DNA of 9,631 nt, from the IMG/VR virus record IMGVR_UViG_2737471845_000027; one strand, 5' to 3'. The DNA is from a virus (taxonomy: Duplodnaviria > Heunggongvirae > Uroviricota > Caudoviricetes). Shown here piece by piece: positions 1 through 1,090 of the stretch. Every line of letters begins with the position of its first letter. The stretch's first letter is position 1. The notes beneath the pieces were generated by a model. That model was not told the DNA's origin, did no database searches, and worked only from the letters and a program-made list of their open reading frames with translations. Both the position numbers and the translations under genes were made by a program.

Positions 1-234
1 CAGAACCGCAGGGATCAGTTTCTGAATTTTTTCCCTTTGCGCTTTCGTTTCACCTTTCAACCAACGGTGATAGATATTCTGCTGATTGTTCCAGTCCTTG
101 CCTGGTACAAGGGGCAATTCGCCGCCCCCCTGGCGCAGATATTCTTCAGTAATTGCGTTAGCGACCCACGCCTGCCCTTTTTCGGCTGCCAGGGCTAACA
201 ACACTGATTCGATGTGCTCATGCCTGATTTTCAT
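1..234 (-). CDS. ydaT: YdaT-like protein (cII-analogue of Rac-type prophages), N-terminal 78 codons; gene continues off the left edge
   Basis: Reverse strand from ATG at 234..232 translates MKIRHEHIESVLLALAAEKGQAWVANAITEEYLRQGGGELPLVPGKDWNNQQNIYHRWLKGETKAQREKIQKLIPAVL, which I recognise as the YdaT N-terminus. AGGAG lies about 9 nt upstream on the minus strand. Not in the ORF track because it is truncated. Confidence 0.75.
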   Translation of the reverse strand, partial: MKIRHEHIESVLLALAAEKGQAWVANAITEEYLRQGGGELPLVPGKDWNNQQNIYHRWLKGETKAQREKIQKLIPAVL

Positions 235-267: not shown

Positions 268-477
268 TTACCGTCTGGGGGGGAATACATCGTCAAGTCC
301 ACAATGAGCGCCAAGCCGATTAAGGGTAGAAACAATTTTTCTGCACTCCTCTAGCCCAGGGGTACGAAAATTTGCTTCGTAATTTGCCAGTCGGCTTTGT
401 ATCCACCCTAACTGAACAGCGAGTTGTCTTTGAGACAGCCCAAGCTGTTTTCGATATGTTGAAATTTTGTTCATCAT
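268..477 (-). CDS. ydaS: Cro-like HTH (XRE family) regulator, YdaS-like
   Basis: 69-aa track ORF with an HTH signature (LGLSQRQLAVQLGWIQSRLANYE). AGGAGG at complement 480..485 favours the second ATG (474) as start. Divergent from the repressor gene and immediately upstream of ydaT. Confidence 0.75.
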   Translation of the reverse strand: MMNKISTYRKQLGLSQRQLAVQLGWIQSRLANYEANFRTPGLEECRKIVSTLNRLGAHCGLDDVFPPRR

Positions 478-571
478 TACCTCCTGTTTCTATTATTCAC
501 ATTTCGTGAGCGAGATCAACTACAGATACGTGAGTAACACTAATTTCACACATCGTGATAAAATCGGAGCT
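478..571. promoter_or_regulatory. Divergent ydaS / racR promoter-operator region with two copies of TCAC-N5-GTGA
   Basis: tcacatttcgtga at 497..509 and tcacacatcgtga at 546..558. Minus-strand promoter candidate: TTGATC (complement 513..518), 16-bp spacer, AATAAT (complement 491..496). Plus-strand TAAAAT at 559..564 sits 7 nt before the racR ATG. Confidence 0.5.
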
Positions 572-961
572 ATGAAAACCATTGCAGAACAAATAGGCGA
601 GCGACTAAAAGCCACTCGCCTAAATCGAGGATTAAGTATGGGAAACTTGGCAAAACTATGTGGTTGGTCAGGTTCTTCTCGTATTGCTAACTACGAAGCT
701 GGCACCAGGAGTGTGGGGGCTGAGGATGCGATCATCCTCGGCCAAGCACTAGGCATTTCCCCCGCAGAATTAATGTTCGGTGAACAGGAAAACACTTACT
801 CGTGGTTAAATGATAACCAGAAAAAAATGCTAGAACTGTTTAATCAGCTCCCAGGATCGGAACAAGCACGCATGATTGATCTGTTCGAAATCCGTCTTCA
901 AGAGCTTGATGAGTATGTGGAAAAATATCTAAGAAGCAGGCAACAGAAAAAATCCTCCTAA
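572..961 (+). CDS. racR: Prophage immunity repressor, HTH XRE family, no S24 peptidase domain (RacR-like)
   Basis: Track ORF 467..961; the first 35 codons overlap the operator-rich intergenic DNA, so I place the start at ATG 572 (MKTIAEQIGERLKATRL...). HTH at about residues 20-60. Start is uncertain. Confidence 0.8.
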   Translation: MKTIAEQIGERLKATRLNRGLSMGNLAKLCGWSGSSRIANYEAGTRSVGAEDAIILGQALGISPAELMFGEQENTYSWLNDNQKKMLELFNQLPGSEQARMIDLFEIRLQELDEYVEKYLRSRQQKKSS

Positions 962-990
962 GCCTTTAATCTCCCTCGATTCCAATCAAA

Positions 991-1021
991 AGGCTCTCGC
1001 TATTAGCGAGGGCTTTTTTTT
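991..1021 (+). terminator. Rho-independent terminator downstream of racR
   Basis: GC-rich hairpin ggctctcgc-tatta-gcgagggc followed by a run of nine T (1013..1021). Confidence 0.7.
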
Positions 1022-1047: not shown

Positions 1048-1090
1048 TGCTCACATATTGAGTTGACAATTCACTCACGATGTGTGAGCA
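1048..1090. promoter_or_regulatory. Operator-like inverted repeat enclosing a TTGACA -35 hexamer, upstream of ydaF-ydaG
   Basis: Perfect 8-bp inverted repeat tgctcaca (1048..1055) / tgtgagca (1083..1090). TTGACA at 1063..1068. Inner site ctcacgatgtgtgag (1074..1088) fits TCAC-N5-GTGA. Confidence 0.35.

Follow-up and report, generated by a model that had tools for sequence, protein, structure and literature searches.

The window analyzed here—9,631 nucleotides of a Caudoviricetes virus (IMG/VR record IMGVR_UViG_2737471845_000027)—is a lambdoid prophage of the Rac-like kind that has integrated next to yebY and whose genes run in the order ydaT, a gene in the Cro position, a gene in the repressor position, DUF1391, kilR, ydaE, racC, recE, recT, ralR, xis, and int. 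The repressor gene and the Cro-like gene diverge from each other, and the subject of this text is the stretch between them, positions 478 to 571, where short palindromes overlap the predicted promoters of both genes and are candidates for the operators of a lambda-type immunity switch. For the counterparts in the window we use the names known from lambda, that is, OR and OL for the right and left operators and PR, PRM, PL, and PRE for the promoters. Table 1 collects the coordinates of the features; the operators and promoters listed there are predictions made from the sequence.

Table 1 Features of the immunity region, with positions counted from the first letter of the window
Feature	Position	Strand	Remarks
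Cro-like gene ("ydaS" of the original prediction)	268..477	-	69 aa from ATG 477; open reading frame list
PR-like predicted promoter of the Cro-like/ydaT operon	492..519	-	TTGATC (519-514), 16-nt spacer, AATAAT (497-492); consensus scan
OR1-like predicted operator TCACATTTCGTGA	497..509	.	fills the PR spacer
Degenerate OR2-like middle site	521..533	.	good right half ACGTGA; left half only TAC, 6-nt spacer (TAC-AGATAC-GTG, 521-532)
OR3-like predicted operator TCACACATCGTGA	546..558	.	overlaps the PRM-like promoter; top position weight matrix (PWM) score in the window
PRM-like extended -10 TGaTAAAAT	556..564	+	TG 556-557 from the operator arm, TAAAAT 559-564
Repressor gene ("racR" of the original prediction)	572..961	+	129 aa; open reading frame list
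Rho-independent terminator after the repressor gene	988..1021	+	14-bp stem and U run; minimum free energy -20.6 kcal/mol, z = -4.8
Degenerate OL2-like site TCACATATTGAGT	1051..1063	.	core 5/6; abuts the PL -35; fourth best PWM position
PL-like -35 TTGACA	1063..1068	+	predicted promoter for DUF1391-kilR-recET-xis-int
OL1-like predicted operator TCACGATGTGTGA	1075..1087	.	in the PL spacer

The original prediction had singled out two TCAC-N5-GTGA sites with identical arms and centers 49 bp apart, and both are found as described (OR1 and OR3). Its set of sites was incomplete, however: a third exact copy (OL1), the degenerate partner of this copy at the PL-like promoter (OL2), and a degenerate middle site between OR1 and OR3 had been overlooked. 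On both strands of the 9,631 bp, TCAC-N5-GTGA has three exact matches against 0.14 expected—a number that none of 200 dinucleotide-preserving shuffles reaches. All three lie in the two noncoding stretches flanking the repressor gene, and OL1 is the exact reverse complement of OR3 with the 5-nt spacer included. With one mismatch allowed, nine matches are found where 3.6 are expected; hence, the signal sits in the exact copies. A symmetrized PWM, built from the other loci described below and scored on the window, places OR3, OR1, OL1, and OL2 at its four best positions (544–560, 495–511, 1073–1089, and 1049–1065, in this order). It adds the feature CAC-R-N3-Y-GTG, which all three exact sites satisfy. 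The extended consensus is (A/T)CAC-R-N3-Y-GTG(T/A), with TCAC-N5-GTGA as the form present in the window.

These palindromes are intimately connected to the predicted promoters. A consensus scan of positions 200 to 1400 returned only one sigma-70-like promoter, the PR-like promoter on the minus strand, and its 16-nt spacer is filled by OR1—just as had been proposed for one of the palindromes and the promoter at the ydaS position. In the window and in its homologues alike, the CAC arm of the distal site directly adjoins the −10 element of this promoter, and the −35 element follows just past the palindrome. Transcription from PR would start near position 485. OR3 overlaps the repressor promoter, which is discussed below. 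Beyond the repressor gene and its terminator, the TTGACA of the PL-like promoter aligns with the TTGACA upstream of ydaG/ydaF in the Escherichia coli K-12 prophage Rac, to which homology resumes beyond position ~1100; its −10 element is uncertain and might be TGtGAGCAT (1083–1091) or CATTTG (1089–1094), with transcription predicted to start near 1097–1101. OL2 lies 24 bp from OL1, and the same PL-like layout recurs in seven homologues (L003, L007, L015, L016, L019, L024, and L026). A terminator scan also picked out 1074–1088, a short hairpin with T-rich sequence after it, which we discarded as a terminator: it is the OL1 palindrome, and the real terminator is the one directly after the repressor gene.

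Further evidence comes from homologous loci. An alignment of the repressor helix–turn–helix (HTH) domain, scanned against one genome from each species, yielded 55 loci, of which the 20 closest together with three phages make up the comparison set; these 23 loci span Enterobacterales to Vibrio and Aeromonas. A homologous HTH repressor with a divergent Cro partner is present in 23 of 23, and in VT1-Sakai, pAEv1818, and Chris1 the counterparts are 57 to 61% (repressor HTH) and 57 to 60% (Cro-like protein) identical to those of the window. Judged by these sequences, the repressor HTH and its Cro partner are inherited together. The 131 bp before the repressor start of each locus add up to 3,013 bp and contain 52 copies of the core CAC-N5-GTG, or 17.3 per kb. 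Elsewhere in the 23 loci, 69,860 bp contain 29 copies (0.42 per kb), which corresponds to a 40-fold enrichment upstream. Most of these outside matches form pairs or triplets, at intervals of 23 to 27 bp, that surround a TTGAC promoter located downstream of the repressor operon. A gapless alignment anchored at the repressor ATG shows exact sites centered at −19 and −67 and, in most loci, a 5/6 site at −43. The sites of the window are centered at −20, −45.5, and −69, and the annotated OR3, OR2, and OR1 of lambda lie at −19, −42, and −66 from the cI ATG.

Closer relatives allow for a view on which part of the palindrome matters. The whole switch region of the window is present in 10 of 5,426 complete E. 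coli genomes, and 152 further ones share only the Cro-like gene, the sequence beyond it being different. E. coli CM2010-0578/1, PEC178, and U90 are examples of strains with this module. In these 152 variant genomes, the Cro-like gene with 98 to 99% nucleotide identity is followed by a different intergenic region and a 139-aa repressor (WP_000410105.1) that is 65% identical to that of the window. One variant examined in detail (L063) has an identical Cro-like protein (66/66), the 65% identical repressor, and a diverged intergenic region, which keeps the CAC/GTG arms with different spacers—ACAC-ACCTT-GTGT and TCAC-GATTC-GTGA. This is what would be expected if the arms, and not the spacer, carry the specificity. 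A recombination junction is visible at the 5′ end of cro when positions 268 to 484 of the window are compared with L063/L064. In K-12, the Rac and Qin prophages fill the same promoter spacers with palindromes that are their own and differ from those of the window, and their repressors are unrelated or only distantly related to that of the window.

Enriched, conserved in position along with the repressor/Cro pair across genera, and overlapping both divergent promoters, the palindromes are well supported as putative operators, in line with the original prediction. We consider it highly probable that 478–571 serves a Rac-like prophage as the right-operator region of its lambda-type immunity switch and carries the sites of the prophage's own repressor and Cro-like protein. 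The region has the lambdoid layout—divergent repressor and cro genes, multiple predicted operators over both promoters, and a distal cluster at PL—as well as the layout of a VT1-Sakai-type module, in which homologous HTH and Cro proteins go along with CAC-N5-GTG palindromes at fixed intergenic positions. In such a switch, dimers of the repressor and of the Cro-like protein would bind the same palindromes via related HTH_3 recognition helices (GW..SR.xNYE). Repressor dimers on OR1 and OL1, aided by the degenerate neighbors, would shut both lytic promoters. As OR1 fills the PR spacer, its occupant would block cro/ydaT and the replication genes, ydaT being the putative cII-analogue gene that follows the Cro-like gene. 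As OR3 supplies the TG of the extended −10, its occupant—the Cro-like protein, or the repressor at high concentration—would shut off repressor synthesis. The degenerate half-site between these two palindromes would stand at the position of lambda OR2, and OL1 with OL2 would form the OL/PL unit at the promoter reading into the genes from DUF1391 to int. The repressor message from its own promoter would begin at its AUG, like those of lambda cI, K-12 racR (from its promoter P3), and paaR2. An opposite preference of repressor and Cro for these operators might then give the bistability of the switch. What the analysis shows are the sites with their statistics, conservation, and geometry, and the relationships of the proteins; that the sites are bound, in which order they fill, whether the middle site activates, and where transcription begins is inferred.

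Some points weigh against this picture, and those that touch the repressor mRNA follow further below. The middle site is the weakest part of the map: it is poor in the window, where it matches 5/6 positions with an N6 spacer whereas most homologues have a 5/6 core with N5, and it is therefore uncertain whether binding there would be cooperative or activating. With training sites picked by their core, the PWM carries some circularity, and its single-site scores of 12 to 16 bits reach into the upper range of the maxima from shuffled sequence (95th percentile 14.7). Many of the homologous loci are near relatives of one another, and the number of independent lineages is closer to a dozen than to 23. 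OR3 and OL1 are the same 13-mer, and, thus, a weak OR3 as in lambda cannot be assumed. Finally, we found no experimental operator mapping in the literature on phages VT1-Sakai and mEpX1, whose annotations read "putative" only.

The repressor promoter deserves a separate consideration. The original prediction had placed a TAAAAT −10 element next to the second palindrome, ending 7 nt before the ATG at 572, and had compared its geometry to that of lambda cI transcribed from PRM. Both observations hold up, and the TG upstream turns the hexamer into an extended −10. The arrangement GTG-n-TAnnnT-N6/7-ATG is present in 22 of 25 sequences compared, with the 6 to 7 nt themselves varying freely. Lambda PRM (GTG-A-TAGATT-TAACGT-ATG) has the same spacing, and its transcript begins with the A of the cI start codon. 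Since the −10 ends 7 nt before the ATG, the repressor transcript would begin at or next to A572, and we infer a leaderless repressor mRNA. Precedents are known from Rac-like prophages with repressors unrelated to that of the window. For K-12 racR, primer extension and −10 mutagenesis identified a leaderless dominant transcript; this gene has three promoters, of which the strongest (P3) is leaderless and two give leaders (PMC9638921). For paaR2, the dominant transcript is leaderless according to 5′ RACE, N-terminal sequencing, and mass spectrometry (PMC8630535).

The operators might also be real and the repressor mRNA nevertheless leadered—transcribed from an upstream promoter or from a YdaT-activated PRE-type promoter at the cro/ydaT junction and translated via a GGAG at 566–569. 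This GGAG, 2 nt before the ATG, went unmentioned in the original prediction and speaks against a leaderless message, as do two homologues that break the spacing, namely L003 with 9 nt between −10 and ATG and L024 with a 38-nt leader containing AGGAG. The two leadered promoters of K-12 racR, as well as a YdaT-type site at 224–241, where a PRE analogue would be expected, point in the same direction. However, a gap of 2 nt from a Shine–Dalgarno (SD) sequence to the ATG falls far short of the spacing that works best, and the scan of 200–1400 found no promoter on the plus strand. Moreover, a spacing kept in 22/25 while the bases vary is predicted by a fixed start at the ATG and not by an SD sequence, and this spacing between −10 and ATG is identical to that of lambda PRM. 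At −12 to −5, a conserved purine-rich element is lacking in the homologues, this stretch being the A/T-rich −10. A solely leadered repressor mRNA thus appears unlikely to us, and it is a rival to the leaderless message only in part, as both kinds of transcript can coexist, like in lambda. The GGAG might serve longer upstream or PRE-type transcripts, and a PRE-type leadered repressor transcript is plausible from the position of the YdaT-type site.

Two further observations concern this start. The repressor frame is open upstream through the entire intergenic region (467–571) to a TTG at 467, and two of the operator half-sites, at 506 and 530, are GTGs in this frame; since homologues and the RefSeq annotation start at ATG 572, this upstream open frame is probably accidental. 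Also, −10-like hexamers are located near the ATG of other DicA-type genes—TACAAT-N6-ATG in Kp4865-4 (L006 1420–1445) and TAGCAT-N9-ATG in dicA (L065 1915–1937)—which suggests that leaderless or near-leaderless repressor mRNAs may be common in the DicA-type group.

The two switch proteins themselves are not those assumed at first. The original prediction had named the genes racR and ydaS, and these identities have to be given up: BLASTP of the repressor against K-12 RacR (b1356) returned no alignment at E ≤ 100, and the Pfam profiles of the two differ as well. The Cro-like protein gave no BLASTP alignment with K-12 YdaS and no match to PF15943 (YdaS_toxin), which YdaS itself matches at 2.6e-31; its only Pfam matches are HTH_3 (4e-10), HTH_19, and HTH_31. 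By sequence, the pair of the window are positional analogues of racR/ydaS in a Rac-like prophage of a different immunity type. The repressor combines an N-terminal HTH_3/HTH_31 domain (Pfam) with a short DicA-type helical domain, a C-terminal tail of 55 aa. BLASTP detects full-length homology to K-12 DicA of Qin (28% identity over 132 aa, E = 3e-14), and DicA (NF007257) is also the best NCBIfam match, covering profile positions 4 to 133 of 135 at 51.2 bits with a curated cutoff of 101. Judged by these scores, the repressor is a DicA homologue, yet below the curated family threshold. The Cro-like protein shows no similarity to DicC. An S24 (LexA-like) autocleavage domain is absent from the repressor, which ends after the 55-aa helical tail, and, therefore, RecA-stimulated self-cleavage is not expected. 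A sequence search of the PDB returned no close solved structure for the repressor. For the Cro-like protein, it returned 28tn_A, an uncharacterized 82-aa "lambda repressor-like protein" matching over 67 residues (E = 1.3e-14); this entry holds no information on operators and is a possible structural template.

Do both proteins read the same sites? The original prediction had pointed to a GW..SR.ANYEA motif common to both, and a BLASTP comparison of the two indeed gives 17/34 identities over the HTH (E = 7e-07). Their recognition helices differ by a one-residue indel and several residues (GWSGSSRIANYE versus GWI-QSRLANYE). Conceivably, only the repressor reads CAC-N5-GTG, and the Cro-like protein recognizes a different or partly overlapping sequence. 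This was left open for PaaR2/YdaS of CP-933P, where repressor and Cro analogue protect overlapping stretches over both promoters and the exact sequences bound by each were not resolved (PMC8630535). Yet the 17/34 identities are centered on the recognition helix, the L063 variant combines an identical Cro with a diverged repressor and an intergenic region keeping only the CAC/GTG arms, and the ATG-anchored alignment contains no second conserved repeat. We judge a repressor-only use of the palindromes to be improbable. That the palindromes represent chance, generic promoter sequence, host-factor sites such as CRP-like ones, or RNA/terminator hairpins is hardly credible: the hairpin flagged at OL1 and single-site PWM scores within reach of the shuffled maxima are outweighed by three exact copies in the window, enrichment at fixed positions across genera only beside the homologous repressor/Cro pair, other palindromes at the same positions in K-12 Rac and Qin, and arms whose orientation is opposite to CRP, with no CRP-like match in the region.

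The window stands close to several well-known systems. With lambda it shares the divergent repressor/cro genes, the three OR positions, the arrangement GTG-n-TAnnnT-N6-ATG, and a second cluster at a PL-type promoter beyond the repressor gene. The half-sites, on the other hand, are 7 apart in lambda and 5 bp apart here, repressor and Cro are here of one HTH type with no S24 domain in the repressor, and the affinity hierarchy may differ given the degenerate middle site and the identical 13-mers at OR3 and OL1. The nearest described relatives by sequence are three 17-bp "putative operator" features in the VT1-Sakai record, which match the window position for position: their cores, CAC-N5-GTG or CTC-N5-GTG, are as far from the ATG as those of the window. 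The N-terminal 74 residues of the window repressor are 59.5% identical to cI of VT1-Sakai and mEpX1, and the Cro proteins are ~60% identical; phiSTEC801-Stx1a is alike. The VT1-Sakai repressor begins with ATGAAAAC (MKT), 6 nt after the end of a −10 element TGtTACATT. Its cI, however, has 215 aa with a C-terminal S24 LexA-like peptidase in place of the 55-aa DicA-type tail of the window repressor. The operators of H-19B were considered as an experimental precedent and dropped, the VT1-Sakai record not calling its cI H-19B-like.

The K-12 Rac prophage has the same backbone and gene order as the window (ydaT, cro position, repressor position, DUF1391, kilR, recET, and int). Its operators, too, lie between the divergent genes and within the spacer of the TTGACA promoter downstream, and its strongest racR promoter is leaderless. 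In contrast, no similarity in sequence is detectable between its switch proteins and those of the window, and the operator motif differs. Whether RacR sites have been mapped, a question raised in the original prediction, can be answered positively for K-12, where footprinting revealed (T/A)TAGGC-n3-GCCTA(T/A) (PMC9638921). This motif is absent from the switch region of the window: TAGGC-N3-GCCTA with up to two mismatches has no match in 440–1110, and its single match in the window at this tolerance, at 1476–1488, is at chance level. As K-12 RacR is a different protein, its different operators do not refute the sites proposed here; conversely, the genes of the window not being racR/ydaS orthologues, the K-12 RacR data do not transfer, for or against.

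CP-933P with PaaR2/YdaS/YdaT (PMC8630535, PMC9986795) resembles the window in having a Rac-like immunity region with an additional PL/OL-type promoter and a YdaT site at the ydaS/ydaT junction. Compared by its published description, it differs by GTTTAGTAA-type repeats and by toxin–antitoxin genes attached to the repressor operon. The YdaT site footprinted there is TTGATT-N6-AATCAA (PMC8630535, PMC9986795). Its counterpart in the window, CTGATTTTCATGAATCAA at 224–241, is one mismatch away from this sequence and sits on the junction of cro and ydaT, where it covers the ydaT start codon (232–234, minus strand)—the position expected for a PRE/cII-type establishment promoter. Qin DicA shares with the window repressor the C-terminal LELFNxLPxSEQ helical domain, and Qin has a downstream promoter with a repressor palindrome in its spacer, which reads into a near-identical DUF1391 leader. 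Its palindromes, unlike those of the window, are of the TGTTAG-N6-CTAACA type, and DicC is unrelated to the Cro-like protein. In phage 434, the DNA-binding domain of the repressor and Cro are clearly homologous HTHs; both read one type of short palindrome, ACAA-N6-TTGT (14 bp), whose central spacer varies. An S24 domain is part of the 434 repressor, and half-site sequence and spacer length differ from those of the window.

The C terminus of the repressor is the variable element of this family. On the same HTH/Cro/operator module, an S24 LexA-like peptidase is present in VT1-Sakai and 11 genomic loci (S24-type C termini in L005 and L008–L018), and the short DicA-type helical tail in the window and six loci (L003, L004, L007, L019, L022, and L023). 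The DicA-type tail is also found on the repressor of the heteroimmune Klebsiella phage Kp4865-4 (L006) with a different HTH; as only the C-terminal domain is common and the repeats differ too, this phage was left out of the operator comparison. The unit "GTG - n - TAnnnT - 6 nt - ATG," in turn, is nucleotide for nucleotide the same in lambda and in this family of unrelated specificity. We offer as a speculation, and a doubtful one, that the cassette of OR3, PRM, and leaderless start is an ancestral, exchangeable block of lambdoid switches rather than a product of convergence, and that the family at the same time forms a natural domain-swap series uncoupling operator specificity from the mode of induction, with the identical 13-mers of OR3 and OL1 pointing to tight autorepression or OL–OR looping.

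The analysis provides a concrete predicted operator map—OR1, OR3, OL1, and two degenerate sites—together with a promoter assignment for an immunity type that occurs in Rac-like prophages of ~10, and in its variant form of ~160, of the 5,426 complete E. coli genomes and also in phages of several other genera. It lends comparative support to leaderless repressor mRNAs as a rule at lambdoid maintenance promoters. It does not describe a new kind of mechanism, as divergent repressor/Cro genes, a tripartite OR, a distal OL, a leaderless mRNA, and a YdaT/cII analogue all have precedent.

Some minor observations concern the leaders of the two lytic transcripts. The Cro-like gene has a second ATG (474), which gives the MNK N terminus of the homologues and has a better SD spacing than the first ATG (477), so that the product has 68 or 69 aa. 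If PR transcription starts at A485, this base is the first of the SD sequence AGGAGG (485–480), and the leader of the Cro-like mRNA would be very short; the cro 5′ untranslated region is ~15 nt shorter in the window than in homologues. At the other side, the leader between the PL-like promoter and the DUF1391 gene (1100–1272; L065 2440–2510) is conserved with K-12 Rac and Qin, for example, in GTTCCGCCACCCGGCGTTAAGGGGAAATGAGGTCA. This leader is conserved although the three immunity regions differ, and it may represent a regulatory RNA element, nut-like or of another kind.

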